Shown here piece after piece: positions 7,759-21,344 of a stretch of 64,000 nucleotides of DNA (position 1 is its first letter; each line of letters starts with the position of its first letter). The translations under genes were made by a program, and so were the position numbers. The notes under the pieces were generated by a model, which was not told the origin of the DNA, did not search any database, and saw nothing but the letters and a program-made list of their open reading frames with translations. This DNA is from an uncultured Gammaproteobacteria bacterium. Lineage in GTDB: Bacteria > Pseudomonadota > Gammaproteobacteria > JABCZS01. The stretch is from assembly GCA_963848305.1 (NCBI GenBank), contig CAWKDC010000001.1, forward strand, positions 544,001 to 608,000, read 5' to 3'.

Positions 7759-8295
7759 CTACAATGGCTTAACCCAAGCGACATATTTATCCATCCATTT
7801 CTGCAAAAACTGAATGCTAGCCGGGCCGATGTTGCCTTTATCATCAAAAAAACCTTCCTTCATTTGAAGAAATGCTTCAGGTTGGCACAAGACATCCACA
7901 TCCAAATAGGCCAATATATTGCGTAAATGTTGTTGGGCCAAAGCGGTACCGATATTTCCTGGCGAAATGCCGATCACACCAGCGCGTTTACCACCCCAAG
8001 CATTTTTCCCATAAGGACGTGAACCCTGATCCAGTGCATTTTTCAACACACCCGGAATAGAGCGATTGTATTCCGGGGTGACAAACAATAAAGCATCGGC
8101 TGATTCAATCTCCTTTTTAAGACGCAGGACAGGTTCAGATTGATGCTCATCATTATCCTGATTGTAAAGCGGCAAGTCATCAATGCGAACATGCTTGAAA
8201 GTCAACGAGGAGGGCGCTAATGTGATCAACGCCTCAGCCAACTTTTTATTAAATGAATCTCGGCGTATGCTGCCGACAATGATAGCGATGTTCAT
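7759..8295 (-). CDS. NAD(P)H-dependent FMN reductase (ChrR/YieF-like flavoprotein)
   Basis: VGSIRRDSFN and TPEYNRSIPGVLKNALD motifs; start placed at MNIAII after GGAG. Confidence 0.9.
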   Translation of the reverse strand: MNIAIIVGSIRRDSFNKKLAEALITLAPSSLTFKHVRIDDLPLYNQDNDEHQSEPVLRLKKEIESADALLFVTPEYNRSIPGVLKNALDQGSRPYGKNAWGGKRAGVIGISPGNIGTALAQQHLRNILAYLDVDVLCQPEAFLQMKEGFFDDKGNIGPASIQFLQKWMDKYVAWVKPL

Positions 8296-8333
8296 CTCTT
8301 TCTCTCCAGAATTCATGTGAATAGTAACCAATC

Positions 8334-9677
8334 TTACATTGAATGCACCAATTGAAGCCCTACAAAGTTAGCAGTGTTCTGAAAGCTACCCTGAGCAGTG
8401 ACAATGTCAAGCTGTTCAATGGGAATAACCCTATATACTGGGTTATTTTGGCTGAACGTGCCATCTTTAAAGAAAGTATGCATGTAAGCAAAGTCGATAT
8501 GGGTCTTTCCCCATGCTTTGGGCTTATACATGAGCCCTATAGCCACATCAAACTGATCAGCATCCGGCGCTTGCAGAATCCTATTGGCATCCGTCACCGG
8601 GCTTTGATCATACGCAAAACCACTGCGTAATTTTATTTCTGGTGTCACATAATAATTGACCCCTAATCCCACGCGCCACGTATTCCTTAAATCAACGTCT
8701 GTATCGATAGGTTCGTGACTTGCAATAATTGGCTCAAAGAGGTTTACACTCACAGCCTGCATCCGACTCCAATGGGTATATAACACATCCGCCAATAATT
8801 CGACTTTTTCATGTGGACGATGAAAAAAATTCAGTGAAACAATGTCAGGGAACTGAAACTGTGAGTAAGCAGGGTAATTTCCTATGTCTGAGACGCCCGA
8901 ATCACGCTCTTTTACATCAAGTTCCAATACAAAATTTCCTTTTGTTTCTTGATCAACAAACATTCTATAATTAAGCCCTACCCTGGTATTATCCGTAAAC
9001 TCATAAATGGCGCCTAAATTAGGGTAAAAAGCGATATTATCCCCTGAGTATTTGCTTTCCCCTGACAAGAACAAGACAGGGTCATCAACTGGTATAGATG
9101 CGTCAAGTTCTGCGCTGAGTTTTGCCTGAAAATATTGCAGATTGGCGCCTAAACCCAGCAATAATTTGTCCGTCACTGCCATGGCCAGCGTGGCGTTGCC
9201 TGTATAAGCAATGAGTTGCGTGTATTTTGCGGTATTGTTCACCACAAAGTTACCATAATCGGATGTTAGCTCATAAGGGGCGTTCAGATTGAGACCAAGC
9301 ATGAACGTCTCGCCCAACGGCGCTGCAAAATATAGCGCGGGACTGAATTGATTGGGCAACGCTGAATATTGTTGTCCTGTAGCACAAGGAATAGGTGTCC
9401 CAAACGAATTTGCGGCGGAATCGACAGTCAGTTGGGCATCAATCGCTGCATAGATACCTGATAGAACGAGCTGTCCACCCTCCAACAACATCAAACCTGC
9501 AGGATTATAGAAACTGATACTGGCATCATCCCCTGCCACACCCGCACCGGCAAAGGCATTACCCATCGCAGAAACACTCTGCAAATCATTATAAACACCT
9601 GCTGCAAAGGCAGATGGAAATAGCGAGGCACAACACAACATCATGAGTGCATTTAAAATCCTGGGAAGTTTTTTCAT
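8334..9677 (-). CDS. fadL: Outer-membrane long-chain fatty acid/hydrocarbon transporter, FadL/OmpP1/TodX family
   Basis: Signal peptide, then AG...SAMGNAFAG..DDAS..FYNPAG hatch motif; LRSGFAYDQSPV. Confidence 0.88.
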   Translation of the reverse strand: MKKLPRILNALMMLCCASLFPSAFAAGVYNDLQSVSAMGNAFAGAGVAGDDASISFYNPAGLMLLEGGQLVLSGIYAAIDAQLTVDSAANSFGTPIPCATGQQYSALPNQFSPALYFAAPLGETFMLGLNLNAPYELTSDYGNFVVNNTAKYTQLIAYTGNATLAMAVTDKLLLGLGANLQYFQAKLSAELDASIPVDDPVLFLSGESKYSGDNIAFYPNLGAIYEFTDNTRVGLNYRMFVDQETKGNFVLELDVKERDSGVSDIGNYPAYSQFQFPDIVSLNFFHRPHEKVELLADVLYTHWSRMQAVSVNLFEPIIASHEPIDTDVDLRNTWRVGLGVNYYVTPEIKLRSGFAYDQSPVTDANRILQAPDADQFDVAIGLMYKPKAWGKTHIDFAYMHTFFKDGTFSQNNPVYRVIPIEQLDIVTAQGSFQNTANFVGLQLVHSM

Positions 9678-9709: not shown

Positions 9710-10447
9710 TTAAAAATAAATGTTGAAGCCAACACCCAATTGCAAGGCACTTGGATTAAAGCTGAGCTCTCCCACGGGCACCAATATAATTGTACTCTGA
9801 TAATTCTCATTGATGAGCGATATTTCTTTGTCTTGATACCAAGTATAAGCCACTTGGCCATCAACACCGATATGGTCTGTCACAAACAGCTCCATGCCCA
9901 ACCCCAAGCGCAAACCAGGTAAGAAAAATTTGTCTTCTTGGGATACCTGAGCACTGTAATCGGGTATCTCGATATTAAAATAGTTGGTGCTCAACTTATA
10001 CTGAGTATAAACTGAACCTACCGTCAAATATCCTAGAAAATTTTCCAGAAAAAGATAACCTTGTTTAAATTGACCACCTAAACTATATGAGGCCTCAGCA
10101 GTTTGTATGAAAAAATCTGACTCATCAACTACGGCGATCCCGATGGCTTCGTCATGTATAAAATATAAATCATTAGGCTGCCCAATCAATTCAAGGGCAG
10201 TGAAAAAACGATCCCGCCAGCCCCAGCGCACATAGGTACCAAAACGTCCCATGGCACTAAAATCCCAACCTGTGTCATCATAATTCACGTTAGACACGTT
10301 GAAAGGCTTCTCAAAAGTAAGATCAGATTGTAAATGCCACAGAGTGCCGGTCGCATCAATGCCAGCATAAAAGCCATAGCGGTCTATCGCTTGAGCAGGA
10401 GAAAACCAGAAACCAAAGAGTAAAGTTGATAAAACTAATTTTTTCAT
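9710..10447 (-). CDS. Outer-membrane beta-barrel protein (OmpA/OmpW-like 8-stranded type)
   Basis: Signal peptide, GFYAG first strand, amphipathic strands, C-terminal LGVGFNIYF BAM signal. Confidence 0.75.
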   Translation of the reverse strand: MKKLVLSTLLFGFWFSPAQAIDRYGFYAGIDATGTLWHLQSDLTFEKPFNVSNVNYDDTGWDFSAMGRFGTYVRWGWRDRFFTALELIGQPNDLYFIHDEAIGIAVVDESDFFIQTAEASYSLGGQFKQGYLFLENFLGYLTVGSVYTQYKLSTNYFNIEIPDYSAQVSQEDKFFLPGLRLGLGMELFVTDHIGVDGQVAYTWYQDKEISLINENYQSTIILVPVGELSFNPSALQLGVGFNIYF

Positions 10448-10492: not shown

Positions 10493-11206
10493 ATGATATG
10501 CTACAATTCCTGTATGGAAACCAAGACACTGATACAGATTATCTTGCTACTGTCTGCAGGGAGGGTGCTTGCTGTATTCTCCCTAGAAGCCTTTTGTAAA
10601 ACAAGCTGGGCCAAAGCTTGGCAGATTTACCCTGTGCGCCCCATCCCCCATCGGCGCCTTGAAGTGTTGATGTACATCACCGGTGTCATGATAGAAGCTG
10701 GGCTCTTAATATTGACCTTACAATACTCGGTGATCACATTTCATTCACCTTCTCTCTGGGGCATTCCTGTACTGATACTGTCGTTTGCGTTGATCGTTGA
10801 ACCCATTTACTATGGTTACCATCGTTTGTTACACACGAAATGGCTGTATAAACACTACCACATCCACCACCATAGAACCACCGTGCCTAAACCTTTGTCA
10901 GGGTTTTATTTTACACTGACAGAGCGTCTCTCCTACACAGCGTTGTTCGTGCTGCCTATTTATATATTATCATCCTTTCAGTTACTGTCCATTCCTTTAT
11001 TATTTTTTTATGTCATCGGGTTTGATATCATCAATGCATTGGGACATACCAACGTTAAAATATTTTCAGACAAATATGAACAATCGATCACACATTTATT
11101 TTTTTATTCGCCGCGTTTTCATGGTGATCACCACAAATATTTTCGCACCAATTACTCATTATTCATGCCGATTTGGGATAAGTTGTTTAAAACCTATCGT
11201 TCATAA
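10493..11206 (+). CDS. Fatty acid hydroxylase/sterol desaturase superfamily di-iron enzyme, CER1/CER3-like
   Basis: His boxes HRLLH, HIHHH, GHTN, HGDHH; C-terminal FRTNYSLFMPIWD; alternative start 10514. Confidence 0.85.
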   Translation: MICYNSCMETKTLIQIILLLSAGRVLAVFSLEAFCKTSWAKAWQIYPVRPIPHRRLEVLMYITGVMIEAGLLILTLQYSVITFHSPSLWGIPVLILSFALIVEPIYYGYHRLLHTKWLYKHYHIHHHRTTVPKPLSGFYFTLTERLSYTALFVLPIYILSSFQLLSIPLLFFYVIGFDIINALGHTNVKIFSDKYEQSITHLFFYSPRFHGDHHKYFRTNYSLFMPIWDKLFKTYRS

Positions 11207-12262
11207 AATGCTTTATCGATATAATTTAATGTTTTTTCCAATAATTCACTGACATTCATGCAAGTCAGCTGATACTGCGTTAAACAGTGTTGAGTATATT
11301 CATTTGAAAACTGTGGGTTCTGAGACATATACGATTGATAAGGTGCCTGCGGCCTGTACAATGTATCGCCCTTGTCGGGTCAACGAAAAAAATTGCTTTA
11401 CAATATCCCAAGTCCAAGGAGGGATGATGATCGTCTTCAAATGATATATCTGTTTAAATAGGCGAAGTTCTTCCCCCACAGTCATTTCATGTCCCAGTCC
11501 ACAGGTTAAATGAAACACATGTCCGATAGCCGTTGAATCCATTAACAAATAAAACATAGCCTGGGCAACATAATCTACCCCGACCATGTCTAATCGACAA
11601 TCAGTATTGCAGGGGAAAAACTTGGGTTGACATTTTTTCACCACTTGCACCAGCGGGAAAATAACATTGCTGCGTGTCACCACGCCCGTCTGACTGTTCC
11701 CTAAAATAATAGAGGGACGAAAAATGATCACGGGTAATGTACCTTTAACCGCATGAACAAGCGCTTCTGCTGCAAATTTTGTCGATTCATAATGATTTTT
11801 AAACCCATGATCCGCGGTAAGATCGTTTTCAGTCACCACGCCCCGACATTTTCCTGCAACATATGCCGTGCTGACATGTCCATACACGTGAAAAGTTGGA
11901 TTCAACGTGTGGCAGGTCTTCGCAAAGTTCAACACGTTTTTCGTGCCCGTCACATTGATTTTTTCGAGTATTGCCTTTGGTTTTTCAAATTGAACCATGG
12001 CTGCGGTATGAACAACATGTGTTATTTTTTGAGCCAGTTCTTTGTATGCCTCATCGGTCAAACCCAGGTTATCTTGAGTGATATCTCCCCGAATAATACA
12101 AACCCGCTCATCTTTGAGTAGACGTCGCTCTGCTGATATGTTTCCTTGATCACGAACCAAACAGTAACATTGCGCAAAAGGATCCCGCTCTAATACGGTG
12201 CGCAGGAATTCACCACCTAAAAAGCCAGTAGCACCCGTGATAAAATAGTGATGAGTTGGCAT
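11194..12262 (-). CDS. Fatty-acyl-CoA/thioester reductase-type extended SDR (NAD_binding_4), apparent +1 frameshift near 11345
   Basis: ITGATGFLG, GDIT..NLGL, HVSTAYVAG, YESTK, FRPSII. ORF track stops at 11300; removing one G gives ...AAAPYQSYMSQNPQFSNEYTQHCL...YER* ending at 11194. Confidence 0.82.
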
Positions 12263-12270
12263 GAACAGCC

Positions 12271-15200
12271 CTATTGTTTAAGAAGCCAGATATACAAAAC
12301 AGGGACAACACCCAATGTGAGTACTGTCGCGACAGTCAAGCCGAAAGCGATGACGCATGCCATGCCGTACCACATGTCACCACCGAAAAGAATCAAAGGC
12401 ACCAACCCCAAAACGGTGGTTAATGATGTCATGAGGATTGGACGGAAACGACGCATACAAGCAGTCACTATCGCTTGATGAGGTGATTGGCCCGCGCGCA
12501 ACTCTTCATCTGCCTGATCGATCAGCACAATGGCGTTGTTCACCAAAATGCCGCCCAGTGACATGAACCCCAGGATCGCAACAAACCCAAATGTTGCCTT
12601 CATCAAAACCAAGCCTAGCACACCCCCAATCATTAACAAGGGCAATGTTAAAAACACAATGCCCGCTCGCTTGACCGAATTGAATTGCCAAGTTAATAAA
12701 ATGAAACCAAGCACCAAACACAGCGGTAAATACGCAAACAAAGCACGTTGCGCTTTGACAGAATCTTCCACTTCGCCGCCCCATGCATAATGATACCCCG
12801 CTGGCAATGAGGCCTTCTTCAGTAAAGGCAACATCTCATCGCGCAATTCAACGGCATACATATTGGGATTGCGCGCACTGACAGTGATTGTATGTTCAAA
12901 ATTCCGGCGCTTTAATTGTCCGAATTTCCATGCGGGCACAAATTGGGCAATTTGTAATAACGGCACACTTTTACCTGTCGCATTAGAATAAACATTAACG
13001 GTACGAAGATTGTCAATTTCCCCTCGCTCGGTACCCTGGGCACGCAATACCACAGGAATGATCTTGTCATGTTCGTAATAATCGGTGACGGCATATCCTG
13101 AATAAAATGCATTGAGAGATAAGGCCACATCCACCGGTGTCATGGCATTCCGACCGGCTTGAGTGGCATCGATGTCGACAAAAACAGTCGCTGTTTTATT
13201 CCCCCAATCATCTTCAATGGACACGGTGCCTGGAATACTTTGAAAAAGCCCTTTCGCTTGATCGGCTAAAGCGTACAACACATTGGGATCAGTACCGCTG
13301 ATCCGCAATTGCACCACACCTGTTTCAGAAGGACCCAAAAATAATTTTTTCACATCCGCATTAGCATCGGGTAAATTTTCAAGCACGTAGCGTTGTGTTT
13401 TTTTGATCAAAGCATCAACCTCGTTGATATCTTTGACATCAACCAACACGAATGCACGGTGTGGGTCTGGATCAAACGGAGATAATGACAAAAAGAAACG
13501 TGGACCGCCTTCACCGACATAAGCTACCGTATCGAGGACATCTGGATTTTCTTTTTTATCCAATAACCAATTGTTTAATGTTTGAACGACTTTTTCAGTT
13601 TGTTTGATGCTAGCGCCACGCGCTAAGTCCAAATAAATTGTATATTGCGCACGATCAGAGGGTGGAAAAAATTGCCGCGGCACCGTTTTCATCAACAAAA
13701 ATGACAATGCAAACATCACTCCCATCGTCATCATAAACACTTTTGCATGTGCCAACACCCACTCAAGCGCCGTGTGATAAATCGTATAAAAACGCGTGGG
13801 ATGTGTGATCGAATCTTCTTCAAAGCCTGTATCTGGAACGCGCATGAAATAAAAACATGCCAATGGTACAATTGTCACAGCGAGAAACCACGAACCTAAT
13901 AAAGTGATACTGACGACTTGCGAGATCGCGTATGTGTATTCTCCGGCACGGTGCTCAGCCAGCATGAGGGGTAAAAAAGCCAATATGGTAGTGAGTGATG
14001 AAGTTAATAATGGGATCAATAAACTGTCGCCTGAATGAATGCAGGCATCCATTCGGGGTTCACCGCGTTGCAAACGAGTCCTAATATCTTCTGCAACAAC
14101 AATGCCATTATCGACCAACAATCCGAGTGAAATGATCAATGCTGCAATGGATACACGGTGCAACGGAATTCCCAACACATACATGACAATCAAGGTGACT
14201 AATAACGTTAATGGAACGTTCAAACCGACAATCAAACCCGTGCGCAAACCTAAAAAGATAATGACGACACCCAACACAATCGCCAAGGTTTGGTACAAAT
14301 TCCCAGTGAATTCGCCCATGCTGGCAGCCACCCAATCCCCTTGAAACGTGGCAAATGCCAATTGATATCCAATCGGCAGCTGTGCTTCGATATTTTTTAC
14401 TGAATCGACAAGACGGTCGCTCAGTTCTAATATATTCATGCCTTCTGTCATGGATATCGCAATCATGATGGCTGGGCGATTGTTCCACAACGCTGCCGTT
14501 TTAGGCGGATCCTGATATTCACGTGTCACATCGACAACATCTCGCAAATAGAACACATGGCCATTGGATGGATTGGTGATTTGTAAATCACCTATATCTT
14601 CAAGTGTCATGAAGTGACCCGACGGCTCAATGACCAATGTTCTGTCCATCACTTCCATTTTGCCACCTGGCAATAATGTATTGGAAGCTCGCAAAGTCTG
14701 AACCAATACCTGCGGTGATATTCCATATTCTGCCAATCGGGCATTGGAAAAATTCAAATAGATGGTTTCATCTTCAACGCCATATAAGGTGACTTTTTTA
14801 ATCCCTTTGATATTGTACAAACTGCGTCGAATATCCAATGCCGTATCGTGCATTTGTGCGGGCGTAAAGCCATCACTGGTCAATGCAATCGTTGCCACGG
14901 TTACATCGCCGTAATCATCATTGACAAACGGCCCTTTCACGCCTGCCGGCAAAGTGTTACTCACAGACTCTACTTTATTGCGCAATTCATCCCAAATCGG
15001 TTGCAAATCAAAATAACGATCGTAGACCGTCACGTGAATGATAGACATATCTGTTCGAGAAGAGGAGCGGATATATTCGACTTCAGGAATTTCACGAATT
15101 TTTTCTTCAAGCGGACGCGTGACCAAATCTTCAATACGCTCTGCTGACATCCCAGGATAAAACGTTGTGACCACGGCTTCACGGATTGTGAAGGAGGGAT

Positions 15201-15309
15201 CTTCTTGGCTGGGAAAATGCCAGTAGGCCCAAATACCCAAGACCAAAGTCAGCACTAAGACGACTGAAAAAAGCGCGGTATTTTTTAACGCGAACCGGGT
15301 GAGTGTCAT
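12271..15309 (-). CDS. RND efflux transporter permease subunit (AcrB/AcrD/AcrF family)
   Basis: EDP.FTIR, GLLVDNGIVV, GILVNNAIVL, RFRPILMTSLTT; start at MTLTRFALKN. Confidence 0.93.
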   Translation of the reverse strand: MTLTRFALKNTALFSVVLVLTLVLGIWAYWHFPSQEDPSFTIREAVVTTFYPGMSAERIEDLVTRPLEEKIREIPEVEYIRSSSRTDMSIIHVTVYDRYFDLQPIWDELRNKVESVSNTLPAGVKGPFVNDDYGDVTVATIALTSDGFTPAQMHDTALDIRRSLYNIKGIKKVTLYGVEDETIYLNFSNARLAEYGISPQVLVQTLRASNTLLPGGKMEVMDRTLVIEPSGHFMTLEDIGDLQITNPSNGHVFYLRDVVDVTREYQDPPKTAALWNNRPAIMIAISMTEGMNILELSDRLVDSVKNIEAQLPIGYQLAFATFQGDWVAASMGEFTGNLYQTLAIVLGVVIIFLGLRTGLIVGLNVPLTLLVTLIVMYVLGIPLHRVSIAALIISLGLLVDNGIVVAEDIRTRLQRGEPRMDACIHSGDSLLIPLLTSSLTTILAFLPLMLAEHRAGEYTYAISQVVSITLLGSWFLAVTIVPLACFYFMRVPDTGFEEDSITHPTRFYTIYHTALEWVLAHAKVFMMTMGVMFALSFLLMKTVPRQFFPPSDRAQYTIYLDLARGASIKQTEKVVQTLNNWLLDKKENPDVLDTVAYVGEGGPRFFLSLSPFDPDPHRAFVLVDVKDINEVDALIKKTQRYVLENLPDANADVKKLFLGPSETGVVQLRISGTDPNVLYALADQAKGLFQSIPGTVSIEDDWGNKTATVFVDIDATQAGRNAMTPVDVALSLNAFYSGYAVTDYYEHDKIIPVVLRAQGTERGEIDNLRTVNVYSNATGKSVPLLQIAQFVPAWKFGQLKRRNFEHTITVSARNPNMYAVELRDEMLPLLKKASLPAGYHYAWGGEVEDSVKAQRALFAYLPLCLVLGFILLTWQFNSVKRAGIVFLTLPLLMIGGVLGLVLMKATFGFVAILGFMSLGGILVNNAIVLIDQADEELRAGQSPHQAIVTACMRRFRPILMTSLTTVLGLVPLILFGGDMWYGMACVIAFGLTVATVLTLGVVPVLYIWLLKQ

Positions 15310-15310
15310 A

Positions 15311-16387
15311 TCAATGCCCTTTGTATAAAGTGACTGATTGGCCGTCAGTGAGGAAATGCACGCCCGCTGTGGCGATAATATCACCGGGTTGCAAACCAGC
15401 AGTCACCTCGACACTGTTGGCGCGAATATCTTTTACAGATACTAGTGTTTTTTTCACAGTTTCTGATTCGGGGTGATAGACAAACACATACGCTTGGCCT
15501 GCATTATCAGCAGGAGCCATGGCTGACGCGGGGATCAAATAACTCTGCGCACCAGATTCGCCCCCCCATTCAAACCACACTTCAGCAGTCAAACCGGGGT
15601 ACAACCCTTCCGTCTGATTCACTTTGATTTTAGTCACAAAAGCATTACCTTCTTCTGTGGAAGCAGCCAATTCAACGACTTCACCGCTGCGACGCTCTTG
15701 ATTAATACTGGGAAATAATACTTGAACAGGAGATCCGAGTTTGACAGCCTGACGCAAACTTTCAGGCAAGGCCACAGAGACTTCAAAACCTTCTTTGCCC
15801 AATAAACGGAATAATGCTTGCCCCGCCACCACATTCATGCCCGCATCGACTTGGCGTGCAGCAATATCCCCCATAAAGGGGGCTTTCAAGACGGTATGTT
15901 CTACATCACGCAAAGCCAACGCTTCTTTTGCATTGGCAGCCTCGAGGTTTTGTTGCGCTGCTTCATATTCGGCAGTGGCGGCATCCATCATGGTTTTGGC
16001 AATAAATTTCTTTTCAAATAACGTCAACTTGGCGTCATAATCCGCTTTTTTTTGCGCCAAAACCGCGCTGGCTTTCGTGACTTCCGCTTTTGCTGCATCC
16101 ACATTCAATTGATAAGGTTTACTGTCCAATGTGGCTAATATTTGACCCGCTTGAACTGTGTCACCCGAAACCACGTACACGGATGCCACGTGCCCAGCAA
16201 CTTGAAACGATAATTCGGCTTCTTGACCAGCCTCAACCACCCCTGAAATACGGCGCATTTGTCCTTTCCCAGGTTCAGAGACTTCGATATATTGAATGGC
16301 ACGACGGGGAATATCTTTTTCTGATTTTCCACAAGATAATAATAAAAGAATAATAAACGGAAATATCCATTTCTTCATGATGCGCAA
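15311..16387 (-). CDS. RND efflux periplasmic adaptor (membrane fusion protein), probable lipoprotein
   Basis: LLSC lipobox, LSFQVAGHV..V.V..GD.V..GQ lipoyl half-motif, LKAPF.G, GLQPGD. Confidence 0.92.
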   Translation of the reverse strand: MRIMKKWIFPFIILLLLSCGKSEKDIPRRAIQYIEVSEPGKGQMRRISGVVEAGQEAELSFQVAGHVASVYVVSGDTVQAGQILATLDSKPYQLNVDAAKAEVTKASAVLAQKKADYDAKLTLFEKKFIAKTMMDAATAEYEAAQQNLEAANAKEALALRDVEHTVLKAPFMGDIAARQVDAGMNVVAGQALFRLLGKEGFEVSVALPESLRQAVKLGSPVQVLFPSINQERRSGEVVELAASTEEGNAFVTKIKVNQTEGLYPGLTAEVWFEWGGESGAQSYLIPASAMAPADNAGQAYVFVYHPESETVKKTLVSVKDIRANSVEVTAGLQPGDIIATAGVHFLTDGQSVTLYKGH

Positions 16388-19636: not shown

Positions 19637-19684
19637 GTAGGGGCGCAAGGGCGTTTACCCCGGCTTTCGCCGGGGCGCACCTAC
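19637..19684. repeat. GTAG-type REP-like element with internal GC hairpin (likely bidirectional terminator)
   Basis: GTAGGGGCGCAAGGGCG...CCCCGGC-TTTC-GCCGGGG-CGCACCTAC; CTA at 19681-19683 is the fadD stop. Confidence 0.7.
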
Positions 19685-21344
19685 ACGTTACGCAATTCTC
19701 GGCGCAAAATCTTCCCCACATTTGATTTAGGCAAATGCTCGCGAAAGACAATCTCTTTGGGCATTTTGTAGCGTGTTAAACGCGTTTCACAATAATCCAG
19801 GATATCTTGTGCGGTTAATTTAGGATCTTTCTTCACCACAAATAATTTCACCATTTGCCCCGCTGATTCACTGGGAACGCCCACGGCAGCCACTTCTAAC
19901 ACACCAGGAACGCCCATCACGACATCTTCAATTTCATTCGGATAAACATTGAATCCTGAAATTAAGATCATGTCTTTTTTGCGATCAACAATATACAAAA
20001 AGCCCTTTGCATCGATTTTGGCAATATCACCCGTTTTCAACCAACCGTCTTTGTCGAGCACGTTCGACGTCTCTTCGGGATTATGCCAATAACCTTTCAT
20101 GACTTGTGGGCCTTTCACACACAACTCCCCCACTTCTGAAATATCCAAGGTATTCCCTTCTTCATCGATGATTTTCACATCCGTTGAAGGAATAGGCAAC
20201 CCAATGGAACCCGTATAGTCTGTAAAATTAAAAGGATTGATGGCCACAGCAGGTGAAGTTTCGGTTAAACCGTATGCTTCCAGAATGGGCTTACCCGTCA
20301 CCGCTTTCCAAGATTTTGCCACGGCATATTGCACAGCCATGCCACCGCCCATCACGAGTTTTAAATGACTGAAATCAAGCCGATCAAATCCTTTGGTATG
20401 CAGCAATCCATTGAATAATGTATTGACGCCCGTGATCACGGTGAATGGAATACCGCGTAAGGTTCGCACAAATCCTTTCATGTCACGCGGGTTGGTGATC
20501 AACACATTCAATGCACCAAACTCGGTGAAAATCAAACAATTCGCCGTGAGCGAAAAAATATGGTACAGCGGCAATGCCGTGATCACGATTTCTTTTCCCG
20601 GCTCTAACATGTGGCCAATCCACGCATTTCCTTGCATCATGTTGGATAACATATTGCCATGCGTCAGCATTGCGCCTTTGGATATGCCCGTTGTCCCACC
20701 AGTATATTGTAAAAATGCGATATCATCTTGAGAAACTTTCACATCATTCAAGGACAAGCTCTGCCCCATCTTTAGCGCTGTTTTAAAATACACAGCACCC
20801 GGAATATGATAACTCGGGTAGGGGTTCACAACATATTTGCTCGCAATATTGACAATAATCCCTTTCAATGAAGGAAATAAATCACCCACGCGTGTGATGA
20901 TCACATGCTTAATCTCTGGACATTCCGGCAATGCTTCTTGTAGCGTATGCGCCATGTTGGCCAATATGACAATGGTCGATGCGCCTGCATCTCTTAACTG
21001 TCGACCGGCTTCGCGCGGCGTATACAAGGGATTGACATTCACCACAATCAACCCTGCACGAAATGCGGCATACACAGCCACCAAATATTGCAACAGATTG
21101 GGCATCATGATGGCGATGCGTTCACCCTTTTTGATTTTCAGGCCTGTTGAAAATAAGCGGCGAGATCGCGGGTCAGCGCGCCTAATTCGCTGAACGTGAG
21201 TGTCGTTCCTAAATTCGTTGCGGCAGGATGATCTTGAAAGCGAGATACTGCGCTGAGAAACAGCTCGGCAATGGATGCATGGGGGCTAGGCGTGATCTCT
21301 GCGGGTACGCCGGGGGGATAGCTGTTGAGCCAGATCTTTTCCAT
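19681..21344 (-). CDS. fadD: Long-chain-fatty-acid--CoA ligase, split by an apparent 1-nt deletion near 21141
   Basis: MEKIWLNSYPPGVP N-terminus (21138-21344) joins LKIKKGERIAIMMPN...LQYTGGTTGISKG...YGLTETSP...GKILRRELR. Confidence 0.92.

Follow-up and report, generated by a model that had tools for sequence, protein, structure and literature searches.

Could a bacterial protein confined to the di-iron half of the plant proteins CER1 and CER3 form hydrocarbons, and which partner would then supply its substrate? The question is raised by a gene at positions 10493–11206 of a 64,000-nucleotide stretch of gammaproteobacterial DNA, hereafter the window. CER1-type alkane formation supplies most of the hydrocarbon of plant cuticles, and we know of no purification or reconstitution of the CER1 enzyme, whose co-product, oxygen requirement and structure are, to our knowledge, still open. 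The best explanation of our results is that 10493–11206 encodes a four-helix-type membrane di-iron oxygenase that shares its lineage with the N-terminal domain found in the CER1/CER3 proteins of plants and the CER1/3 proteins of algae, and its position beside a fatty-acyl reductase gene points to a putative compact bacterial route from fatty acids to hydrocarbons.

A stand-alone relative of the CER1/CER3 di-iron domain

The open reading frame at 10493–11206 (+ strand) encodes a stand-alone CER1-type FA_hydroxylase of 237 residues, a predicted di-iron membrane protein, which matches Pfam PF04116 (FA_hydroxylase) with an E-value of 9.8e-23 and 81.5 bits against a cut-off of 31. Since its orthologs start near Met8, the ATG at 10514 may be the true start. 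The translation includes VEPIYYGYHRLLH, HYHIHHHRTTVPKP, FDIINALGHTNVKIFSDK and YSPRFHGDHHKYFRTNYSLFMPIWD, and it keeps all nine conserved histidines of the family: three His-rich motifs, HX3H (H110/H114), HX2HH (H123/H126/H127) and HX2HH (H210/H213/H214), plus H185. These nine residues are invariant across the clade of the query and conserved to 97% or more among the fused, CER1-like proteins; all 17 aligned clade members, down to 33% identity, retain them together with the clade-specific residues described below. The AlphaFold2 model is predicted to be all-helical (mean pLDDT 90.1, pTM 0.85). Using phmmer against PDB chains, we obtained chance matches alone (E 0.09 or worse), Foldseek searches of the PDB with the model found no solved structure at E≤1e-3, and an ESM Atlas search with the hydroxylase returned generic “sterol desaturase family” clusters only.

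The host genome is small (1.9 Mb, 92% complete) and contains a second PF04116 copy, an ordinary bacterial paralog at C1:712392-713204. GC content around the hydroxylase gene is 0.41, slightly lower than the 0.43–0.51 usual in the window. Presence within the family is patchy, with true orthologs in two of 11 other genomes and a remnant in one; in loci L006 and L026 the gene is reduced to a 28-codon remnant. Promoter and terminator scans around the hydroxylase and its neighbouring reductase gene gave no useful excess over shuffled expectation (10 against 7.2 and 4 against 2.4), and none of the 10 runs holding part of the stretch (word shares of at most 0.35; parts without contig cover) is RNA data.

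The open reading frame ends at residue 237, straight after the FA_hydroxylase domain, and lacks the WAX2 domain (PF12076, CER1-like_C) of plant CER1 and CER3. PF12076 had no match in the 92%-complete genome, where the control likewise gave no match in any genome, and our own profile built from the C-termini of fused proteins scored at most 17 bits in this genome, compared with E-values of 1e-34 to 1e-129 on true fused genes. The absence of the WAX2 domain, which the earlier note had asserted, is thus borne out, and because of it the protein falls outside the strict two-domain CER1/CER3 family. The fused C-terminal domain of the eukaryotic proteins is a homolog of AAR, the cyanobacterial acyl-ACP reductase (6jzq, E 6e-13), and a profile of the fused proteins matched the PDB through the C-terminal domain only.

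An exhaustive HMMER search of 1.84 billion representatives yielded 1239 matches at E≤1e-3. About ten short relatives ranked first, followed mostly by proteins of 560–810 residues; PF12076 is present in 36 of the 51 matches of at least 400 residues. The window’s protein is 35–46% identical to the fused proteins over about 140 residues, the upper value being reached with P0010 (678 residues, PF04116 plus PF12076; 46% over 136 residues, BLASTP E 9e-34). Seven positions (Y106, Y148, F152, F177, D178, Y205 and P226) are at least 80% conserved both in the short bacterial clade and in the fused proteins, the figure for 21 ordinary bacterial FA_hydroxylases being 25% or less. From 25 fused proteins we derived the consensus VEPxYYxxHRxLH...HSHHH...FDxMNxxGHCNxE...YTPxFHSLHHTxFxxNYxLFMP. 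The plant anchor of these proteins is Pfam PF12076 together with the JGI label “aldehyde decarbonylase” on P0008: a profile search from the 25 fused proteins gave 54 matches, no plant-named one among them, and no long match fits all six positions of the published AtCER3 and OtCER1/3 residue numbering, P0041 fitting the three His positions only. The best long matches appear to be protist, the P0010 group lying on contigs of about 2 kb and P0175 being a EukProt transcript.

Phylogenetic analysis placed the query accordingly. We computed a FastTree phylogeny of 175 rows (181 domain matches after removal of two duplicates of the loci L004 and L005 and of four rows covering under 110 profile positions) and an IQ-TREE LG+C20 phylogeny of 87 of these rows, picked once the FastTree result was known (29 from the short ingroup, 37 that are full-length fused or long, and 21 from the outgroup; short fused-clade fragments were left out). 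Fused proteins were recognised by PF12076 alone, and ordinary bacterial homologs served as outgroup. In both trees, the query, short proteins from Nitrospirales, Parachlamydiales and Legionellaceae, and all fused proteins form one clade with support 99, its bacterial members coming from at least three phyla, while ordinary bacterial sterol-desaturase-like proteins, including the genome’s second copy, form a separate group (67 and 21 rows).

These results support the earlier note’s proposal that this is a bacterial stand-alone protein related to the CER1/CER3 di-iron domain: the strings that it quoted are present in the translation, the pattern that it gave for CER1 and CER3 agrees with the consensus of the fused proteins, the likeness exceeds both generic His boxes and chance (46% identity and the seven clade-specific positions), the best long matches combine PF04116 with PF12076, and in the comparison with ordinary bacterial homologs for which it called, the query falls with all PF12076-bearing proteins in two trees. 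Grouping with ornithine-lipid hydroxylases, the contrary outcome named there, was not seen, the protein scoring 23.8 bits with NCBIfam OlsE (NF052566) against a cut-off of 475. As to origin, the note had considered both an ancestral-like and an acquired protein. The free IQ-TREE phylogeny unites the fused proteins in a single clade, without bacterial members, that lies nested among short bacterial clades (SH-aLRT 82); the alternative of joining the query clade to the protist-type fused sequences of the P0010 group, a group chosen after seeing the tree, was not rejected by an AU test (p = 0.215). An ancestral-like position outside the fused clade and an acquired one inside it are both compatible with these values.

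Reductase genes beside the hydroxylase

Convergent with the hydroxylase gene, on the − strand at 11194–12262, lies an NAD_binding_4 (PF07993) thioester-reductase-like gene. It matches PF07993 over positions 1–258 of 258 (E 3.2e-57, 194 bits) and is the one strong match in the genome, the others reaching at most 45 bits. As assembled, its frame breaks near 11345, leaving an open reading frame of 320 residues (11300–12262) and a conserved 47-residue reductase tail in another frame at 11194–11343, recovered by tblastn. A contig from run X1 (151 nt, depth 2.2) omits one letter at 11345, and without this letter the reductase has 355 residues and aligns with the L016 ortholog over positions 1–353 of 353 (57%); the frame repair rests on this one low-depth contig. 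If intact, the gene overlaps the 3′ end of the hydroxylase gene by 13 nt at its own 3′ end. The truncated 320-residue frame scored 150.6 bits with TIGR01746 (positions 3–285 of 371), under the cut-off of 213.35. A Rossmann motif (TGxxGFxGG) and a Y..TK motif are invariant in all eight aligned reductase partners. Complex prediction for the L016-type hydroxylase and reductase from alignments gave no verdict (score 0.00 against a mark of 0.32, in a run without controls).

We then compared 18 loci in which a stand-alone CER1-type gene is complete and has flanks that can be used, namely the window, 11 genome loci and six metagenome loci; on the metagenome side, 36 of 80 loci were analysed (L043–L078), the other 44 being matches of about 27–40 residues (L106 longer) that were left out. 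An NAD_binding_4 gene lies within 4 kb in 11 loci (the window, L015, L016, L018–L022, L025, L043 and L046), and in four more (L023, L024, L045 and L047) a gene of the HMG-CoA-reductase family overlaps the start of the hydroxylase gene. The remaining three (L017, L044 and L048) are without such a reductase gene, L017 having 808 nt upstream only, near a contig end. Related genomes are not independent, and the 15 positive loci amount to about five arrangements. Such a reductase was found in none of nine control loci with ordinary FA_hydroxylase genes, within flanks of about 1.5 kb.

The NAD_binding_4 domain of L043 closes a 1046-residue protein that also carries an AMP-binding domain, a carboxylic-acid-reductase-like layout, and the gene for this protein overlaps the start of the hydroxylase gene. 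At L015 the reductase gene comes first in a series encoding an acyl carrier protein, a FabA-like dehydratase and two ketosynthases; a search of the window’s genome for an L015-type cluster of this kind matched just housekeeping FabF-like and FabZ genes. P0033, a metagenome protein of 664 residues, is a natural fusion in which an NAD_binding_4 domain is joined to a hydroxylase domain sharing 42% identity with the query. For the HMG-CoA-reductase homolog we checked a single family bearing on a mevalonate-pathway reading, the HMG-CoA synthase N-domain, which was above cut-off in neither of two Parachlamydiales genomes and is weak evidence. Envelope-lipid genes stand near some loci: LpxA-like and ArnT-like genes in L043, a glycosyltransferase and an acyltransferase in L044, an MBOAT gene in L048 and LpxD upstream in L024. 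Because the fused C-terminal domain of the eukaryotic proteins is AAR-homologous and the bacterial genes have partners of their own, a reductase of some family appears to accompany this hydroxylase lineage wherever it is present. The hydroxylase–reductase pairing was not mentioned in the earlier note.

A candidate route to hydrocarbons and its alternatives

Because reductase genes recur beside stand-alone hydroxylases and the fused eukaryotic domain resembles acyl-ACP reductase, the pair can be read as a putative split CER1/3-like system leading from acyl-thioester through aldehyde to hydrocarbon; on sequence evidence, we consider the chances of this reading to be about evenly balanced. The reductase would take a fatty acyl thioester (acyl-ACP or acyl-CoA) and, with NAD(P)H, release a fatty aldehyde. 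The di-iron enzyme would then remove the aldehyde carbon, giving a hydrocarbon one carbon shorter, and the hydrophobic product, or the fatty-acid substrate, might pass the outer membrane through the neighbouring FadL-type channel. The suggestion that the protein acts on fatty aldehydes gains support from the way in which genes for acyl-thioester or carboxylate reductases recur next to the hydroxylase gene in different phyla, and from the one natural fusion, although stand-alone NAD_binding_4 enzymes may carry out a four-electron reduction to alcohols and release no aldehyde. More tentatively, the stand-alone bacterial CER1-type proteins could be true aldehyde-to-hydrocarbon enzymes and stand for the ancestral state of the N-terminal domain in eukaryotic CER1/3, a portable module coupled independently to at least four kinds of aldehyde-forming reductase: NAD_binding_4, carboxylic-acid-reductase-like (A-T-R), HMG-CoA-reductase-like and, fused in eukaryotes, the AAR-like WAX2 domain.

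Land-plant CER1/CER3 (PF04116 plus PF12076) and the bifunctional algal CER1/3 share with the window’s protein an FA_hydroxylase domain of the same lineage, with 35–46% identity, the three His motifs and the seven clade-specific positions, and in both settings a thioester reductase accompanies the di-iron domain. In contrast to these proteins of about 600–700 residues, that of the window has 237 and no WAX2/CER1-like_C domain in either protein or genome; its reductase is a separate gene of another family (NAD_binding_4 here, HMG-CoA-reductase-like or carboxylic-acid-reductase-like elsewhere), and its bacterial host has no ER and no cytochrome b5 that we could find in the genome. The window’s reductase keeps the Rossmann and Y..TK motifs of thioester reductase domains and carboxylic acid reductases (PF07993, TIGR01746), yet it is stand-alone, about 355 residues long and under the TIGR01746 cut-off; the L043 reductase domain shares the AMP-binding layout of carboxylic acid reductases. 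The proposed route would follow the two-step logic of cyanobacterial AAR and aldehyde-deformylating oxygenase (ADO), with adjacent genes for a thioester reductase forming an aldehyde and a di-iron oxygenase forming the Cn-1 alkane. ADO, a soluble di-iron protein of the ferritin-like type, has no relationship to PF04116, and the kinship of AAR is with the WAX2 domain of eukaryotes rather than with the window’s NAD_binding_4 partner; neither window protein belongs to the ADO or AAR families, and the likeness is one of logic only.

In the available portions of PMC13326499, algal CER1/3 expressed in yeast makes C15–C17 hydrocarbons, single His-motif substitutions in its N-terminal domain abolish hydrocarbon formation, and this domain uses aldehydes from the WAX2 domain of AtCER3. 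Aldehyde formation by CER3 is described in the literature consulted as having indirect support only, further experiments on the system being called for. In a review citing Chaudhary et al, 2021, the WAX2 domain is traced to bacteria and archaea and the hydroxylase half is called generically an “ERG3/FAH” domain. The CER1 N-terminal domain is described as resembling the catalytic domain of Scs7 (PMC13326499). The yeast sphingolipid alpha-hydroxylase Scs7p and FA2H, which provide a solved superfamily structure, likewise have a His-coordinated di-metal membrane domain; in contrast to them, the window’s protein has no fused cytochrome b5 and found no match in the PDB by sequence or by Foldseek (E≤1e-3). 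Our literature search found no account of a stand-alone bacterial CER1-type protein or of its reductase pairing; Chaudhary et al, 2021 and the supplements of papers, which lay outside the scope of that search, may include bacterial proteins of this kind.

If the clade is not hydrocarbon-forming, the protein could be a lipid hydroxylase or desaturase modifying the reductase product or a membrane lipid, for instance through hydroxylation of a fatty aldehyde, fatty alcohol or acyl chain, with hydroxy-alcohols, diols or an unusual envelope lipid as products; we regard this as possible, if somewhat doubtful. The FA_hydroxylase superfamily performs hydroxylation, desaturation, methyl oxidation and ether-lipid monooxygenation on one His scaffold, so that chemistry can change at 35–46% identity. 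The Pfam family is FA_hydroxylase, homologs are labelled “sterol desaturase family protein”, the nine histidines are common to ordinary members, the envelope-lipid genes of L043, L044, L048 and L024 fit a lipid-modifying role, and the reductase association would suit any aldehyde- or alcohol-modifying enzyme equally. The ordinary bacterial “sterol desaturase family” proteins and OlsE do share Pfam family, size (230–290 residues) and nine histidines with the query. However, the query is set apart from the ordinary homologs with support 99 in two trees, their loci lack a reductase neighbour (0 of 9), its OlsE score lies far under the cut-off, and the seven conserved positions are shared with fused CER1-like proteins only. 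Characterised members of the sister group form hydrocarbons, according to the portions of PMC13326499 consulted, which also argues for the split hydrocarbon-forming system.

Flux in the opposite direction is unlikely. Alkylglycerol monooxygenase, of the same superfamily, yields aldehydes, and by analogy the di-iron enzyme might cleave an ether or other lipid to an aldehyde that the NAD_binding_4 enzyme would reduce to an alcohol, with FadL importing the substrate; a reductase neighbour and an uptake channel would suit such a salvage route. Yet L043, with its AMP-binding domain and reductase, and L015, where a reductase is joined by an acyl carrier protein, ketosynthases and a dehydratase, have biosynthetic, thioester-releasing layouts, and both trees give the protein its affinity with CER1/3. 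Still less probable is a catabolic oxygenase that hydroxylates an imported hydrophobic compound such as an alkane, entering by a FadL/TodX channel, with the reductase acting as an alcohol or aldehyde oxidoreductase. FadL/TodX channels adjacent in two phyla and an RND pump on the reductase strand would agree with it, but the alkane hydroxylases known with this kind of membrane architecture are members of the FA_desaturase family, not of PF04116, genome size is low among the carriers (1.9 Mb in the present case), and the partners in L015 and L043 are biosynthetic.

Least probable of all is a recent acquisition from a eukaryotic host or prey protist that has lost WAX2 and is now a decaying or functionless relic: the protist appearance of the best long matches (P0010 group, P0175), the Legionellaceae and Parachlamydiales genomes among the other carriers, the AU result (p 0.215), the 28-codon remnants in L006 and L026 and the reductase frameshift as assembled would fit it, but the hydroxylase frame is intact, 17 members as distant as 33% identity keep the nine histidines and clade residues, each of the three or more phyla has its own reductase partner at tight or overlapping spacing, GC is just slightly under that of the window, the free tree keeps the fused proteins as a single clade without bacterial ones, and an independent contig restores the reductase frame.

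A bacterial CER1-lineage protein of 230 residues with a separate, soluble-type reductase and no need of an ER would be far easier to express, to solve structurally and to study mechanistically, and the short bacterial clades are candidates for the origin of the CER1/3 hydroxylase half. If the ancestral, portable-module reading holds, it would provide a 230-residue model for the CER1 reaction, and bacteria of three groups, Nitrospirales, Parachlamydiales and small-genome Gammaproteobacteria, would have a third alkane pathway, a membrane-bound one. In metagenome surveys, bacterial genes with a KO annotation as “fatty aldehyde decarbonylase” are already tallied among the alkane producers without test, as excerpts of one such study indicate (PMC10176705), and whether or not this clade makes hydrocarbons bears on the validity of those counts.

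Electron supply and transport genes in the neighbourhood

No electron donor is conserved across the loci, and cytochrome b5 (PF00173) had no match in the 92%-complete genome. An NADPH-dependent FMN reductase of 190 residues (7759–8331, − strand; PF03358, E 1.9e-37), directly downstream of the FadL gene, might speculatively serve as donor; it has no match in the 6-kb flank of L016.

On the reductase side, an RND efflux pump of the AcrB family (12271–15384, − strand; PF00873, E 7e-165) lies next to the gene for its membrane-fusion protein (15311–16387, − strand; HlyD families). Just 8 nt separate the end of the pump gene from the start of the reductase gene on the same strand, so co-transcription is possible. 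We treat the pump as context only; the same-genus locus L016 had no AcrB match, and the pump is not conserved there.

On the other side, a FadL/TodX-family outer-membrane channel for hydrophobic compounds (8334–9677, − strand, 447 residues; PF03349, E 3.4e-70) stays beside the pair in the same-genus genome (L004/L016 synteny). A FadL-family gene also follows the hydroxylase gene in the Parachlamydiales loci L023 and L024 and occurs in the metagenome loci L045 and L047, so that channels of this family adjoin the hydroxylase gene in two phyla. Between the window’s FadL gene and the hydroxylase gene, and divergent from the latter, lies a gene for an outer-membrane beta-barrel protein of 245 residues (9710–10447, − strand; PF13505, E 9.3e-8), whose ortholog occupies the same place in the same-genus genome (L004/L016).

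The hydroxylase gene and its CER1/CER3 likeness

The FA_hydroxylase gene at 10493–11206 (plus strand) is an open reading frame of 237 codons (PF04116, E 9.8e-23); because its orthologs start near residue 8 of this frame, translation may in fact begin at the ATG at 10514. All motif strings quoted in an earlier note, which had read the product as a stand-alone bacterial CER1/CER3-type di-iron protein, are present in the translation. The match to the NCBIfam model of the ornithine-lipid hydroxylase OlsE is far below threshold (23.8 bits versus a cut-off of 475). The genome holding the gene comprises 1.89 Mb in 4 contigs and is 92% complete. A second FA_hydroxylase gene in this genome (G000:C1:712392-713204, equivalent to L002:1492-2304, minus strand; 270 aa) lies directly downstream of a succinyl-CoA-ligase-alpha-like gene, a neighbor identified by eye; it falls within the ordinary bacterial clade, and four related genomes contain orthologs of it, whereas the CER1-type gene is patchy.

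Judged from database sequences, close relatives of the query are rare: a word-indexed search of 5.8 billion proteins returned nine of similar length at 65–40% identity, one of which (P0008) carries the JGI label 'aldehyde decarbonylase'. The single match among longer proteins was P0010 (678 aa), which combines PF04116 with PF12076 (CER1-like_C, the WAX2 domain) and shares 46% of 136 aligned residues with the query (BLASTP E 9e-34). When 1.84 billion cluster representatives were searched exhaustively with HMMER, 1239 matched at E<=1e-3, with about ten short proteins ranked first, followed mostly by proteins of 560–810 aa; PF12076 was present in 36 of the 51 listed matches of at least 400 aa. 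Nine histidines are common to the whole superfamily by column counts. Conservation at seven further positions (Y106, Y148, F152, F177, D178, Y205 and P226) reaches 80% or more both in members of the short bacterial clade and in the fused proteins, and does not exceed 25% across 21 ordinary bacterial homologs. The P0010 match, the HMMER ranking, the frequency of PF12076 and these seven clade-specific positions show that the likeness is real, 'CER1/3-type' here denoting proteins that carry the Pfam CER1-like_C domain, with fused proteins recognized by Pfam alone and without plant names.

A test for two-domain membership found WAX2 absent from the query, as had been noted earlier. PF12076 exceeded its cut-off in none of 401 sampled genomes of the window's phylum, the fused proteins nearest the query stem from roughly 2-kb contigs and one EukProt transcript, and two-domain proteins are reported in green algae, cryptophytes and diatoms in the available portion of a review (PMC13510223); on these grounds, we regard the fused proteins as predominantly eukaryotic.

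Phylogenetic placement

Two trees were computed without named plant or fungal reference sequences: a FastTree phylogeny of 175 domain sequences and an IQ-TREE LG+C20 phylogeny of 87 rows, selected after the first tree was seen. In both, a branch with support 99 splits off the ordinary short bacterial FA_hydroxylases, including the second gene of this genome and its orthologs. Grouping with such homologs, the outcome named beforehand as contradicting a CER1/CER3 affinity, was thus not seen, and the assignment of the query's lineage against ordinary bacterial homologs is firm. On the opposite side of this branch lie all PF12076-bearing proteins together with several short clades: that of the query (6 rows, support 100), a Nitrospirales clade (support 100), a Parachlamydiales clade (support 99) and a group containing a Legionellaceae MAG. 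In the second tree, the 37 fused or long proteins cluster as a single clade (SH-aLRT 82, not strong) that arises from among the short bacterial ones, and the backbone of this CER1-type part is a polytomy. An AU test did not reject uniting the query clade with the best-hit fused group (P0010, P0035 and P0026, likewise picked after the first tree was seen; log-likelihood difference 16.7, p 0.215). Evolution may have run in either direction: the eukaryotic domain may descend from the bacterial form, or bacteria may have gained the domain and then lost WAX2.

Reductase genes beside CER1-type loci

Convergent with the hydroxylase gene is an NAD_binding_4 gene ('male sterility', thioester reductase type; 11194–12262, minus strand; PF07993 E 3.2e-57 over the whole profile), the sole strong member of its family in the genome. 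In the assembly, an apparent 1-nt frameshift (11194–11345, minus strand) interrupts its frame 47 codons short of the end, with the conserved tail in another frame. A 151-nt contig from an independent wetland-metagenome run, at a depth of only 2.2, has one letter fewer at 11345; with this letter omitted, a 355-aa frame is recovered that matches the ortholog along its full length. Misassembly or strain variation is thus the probable cause of the break. On the same strand, RND pump genes stop 8 nt short of the reductase start; they have no counterpart at the same-genus locus. The pair is separated by 7 kb from an AMP-binding (acyl-CoA-synthetase-like) gene (19681–21108, minus strand), whose Pfam match starts at profile position 52 and whose true start may be further upstream.

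We compared 18 stand-alone CER1-type loci with flanks, namely the window, 11 genome loci from a pattern-limited scan of 185,579 species genomes and 6 usable metagenome loci; they are not independent, representing some five arrangements spread over three or more phyla. An NAD_binding_4 gene occurs within 4 kb in 11/18 (the window, L015, L016, L018–L022, L025, L043 and L046). It is convergent with the hydroxylase gene in the gammaproteobacterial genus; in L046 and each of the six Nitrospirales genomes it directly precedes that gene on the same strand. At L043, the domain forms the C-terminal part of a 1046-aa protein with an AMP-binding domain, a carboxylic-acid-reductase-like layout, and the stop of this gene overlaps the hydroxylase start. 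At L015, from a different-genus relative (G008), a run facing the hydroxylase gene (L015:4786-8961, minus strand) begins with the reductase and continues with an acyl carrier protein (DSL motif), a FabA-like dehydratase and two ketosynthases, one without a C-terminal domain match (chain-length-factor-like). This acyl-building set is dedicated, and the window's genome lacks it.

Four further loci (L023, L024, L045 and L047), from two named Parachlamydiales genomes and two metagenome contigs, share an identical layout in which an HMG-CoA-reductase-family gene (L024:4689-5870, L023:4689-5867) overlaps the hydroxylase start and a FadL-family gene follows. HMG-CoA synthase exceeded the cut-off in neither Parachlamydiales genome, so the reductase there may not serve the mevalonate pathway. 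No reductase was seen at the remaining three: L017, which begins near a contig end with 808 nt upstream only, L044, which adjoins a type I polyketide synthase, and L048, near an MBOAT gene. In a rough control, none of nine ordinary FA_hydroxylase loci (flanks of about 1.5 kb) had such a reductase. In P0033, a 664-aa protein from a metagenome, NAD_binding_4 is joined in one chain to a hydroxylase domain that shares 42% identity with the query.

Two related gammaproteobacterial assemblies retain no more of the CER1-type gene than its 3'-terminal 28 codons (L026:2253-2336 and L006:1504-1587; 86% identical), and an NAD_binding_4 gene, intact or partial, lies roughly 1 kb away; this suggests loss of the hydroxylase with retention of the reductase.

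A candidate aldehyde route and its parallels

A profile of 25 fused proteins matched the solved cyanobacterial acyl-ACP reductase 6jzq through the C-terminal domain (E 6e-13), in agreement with the likeness of WAX2 to this enzyme described in available sections of PMC13326499. The same sections report that an algal CER1/3 by itself yields C15–C17 hydrocarbons in yeast, that single His-motif substitutions in the N-terminal domain abolish hydrocarbon formation, and that this domain can use aldehydes from the WAX2 domain of AtCER3. The hydroxylase lineage is accompanied in each setting by a thioester- or carboxylate-reducing enzyme, the family of which varies; what these settings have in common is most simply read as the product of the reductase, a fatty aldehyde, which the di-iron protein would consume.

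We accordingly give about an even chance to a split route from acyl thioester through aldehyde to hydrocarbon. The NAD_binding_4 enzyme would reduce acyl-ACP or acyl-CoA to a fatty aldehyde, as suggested by its family, its conserved Rossmann and Y..TK motifs and the biosynthetic layouts of L015 and L043. The membrane di-iron enzyme would then convert the aldehyde to a Cn-1 hydrocarbon, a step to which its lineage and the activity of relatives point. More speculatively, a FadL-type channel (8334–9677) and a small beta-barrel protein (9710–10447), the genes of which are both conserved in the same-genus genome, might pass the hydrophobic product outward or fatty acids inward. No cytochrome b5 is encoded in the genome; an FMN reductase (7759–8331), not conserved beside the pair, could be the electron donor. 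In the main rival reading, the protein would have retained the hydroxylase or desaturase chemistry typical of the superfamily, with the product of the reductase or an envelope lipid as its substrate; this reading draws on the position of several CER1-type loci among envelope-lipid genes, and we consider it possible but rather unlikely.

In its sequence logic and its pairing with a reductase, the query resembles the N-terminal half of CER1/3, but it lacks WAX2, has a non-homologous reductase as its partner and comes from a genome without cytochrome b5. Given the missing WAX2 and cytochrome b5, we do not file it within the CER1/CER3 family; it is filed as a stand-alone bacterial sister form with a non-homologous reductase partner. 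We found no description of the stand-alone bacterial clade or of the reductase pairing in the article texts searched. In the portion of the review available (PMC13510223), a prokaryotic origin is traced for the WAX2 half alone, and a metagenome survey, in the part available (PMC10176705), counts KO-annotated, uncharacterized bacterial 'fatty aldehyde decarbonylase' genes as alkane producers. Cyanobacterial AAR/ADO parallels the pathway logic with unrelated proteins. If its function is confirmed, the query would provide a small bacterial model for the CER1 reaction, which is not known to have been reconstituted, and would point to a possible origin of the hydroxylase half of CER1/3.

Two very AT-rich, gene-dense metagenomic contigs carry intronless FA_hydroxylase + WAX2 fusion genes: L051:4713-6467 (GC 25%, 98-kb contig), with Peptidase_S74 and an AAA ATPase close by, and L058:4983-6713 (GC 18%, 54-kb contig), with a FAD_binding_6 oxidoreductase and a cytochrome-b5/fatty-acid-desaturase fusion as its flanking neighbors. 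The contigs may derive from giant viruses or AT-rich protists that carry a CER1/3-like gene plus electron-transfer partners. An unusual fusion was also seen in the 1098-aa metagenome protein P0073, which unites CER1-like_C, FA_desaturase and FA_hydroxylase.
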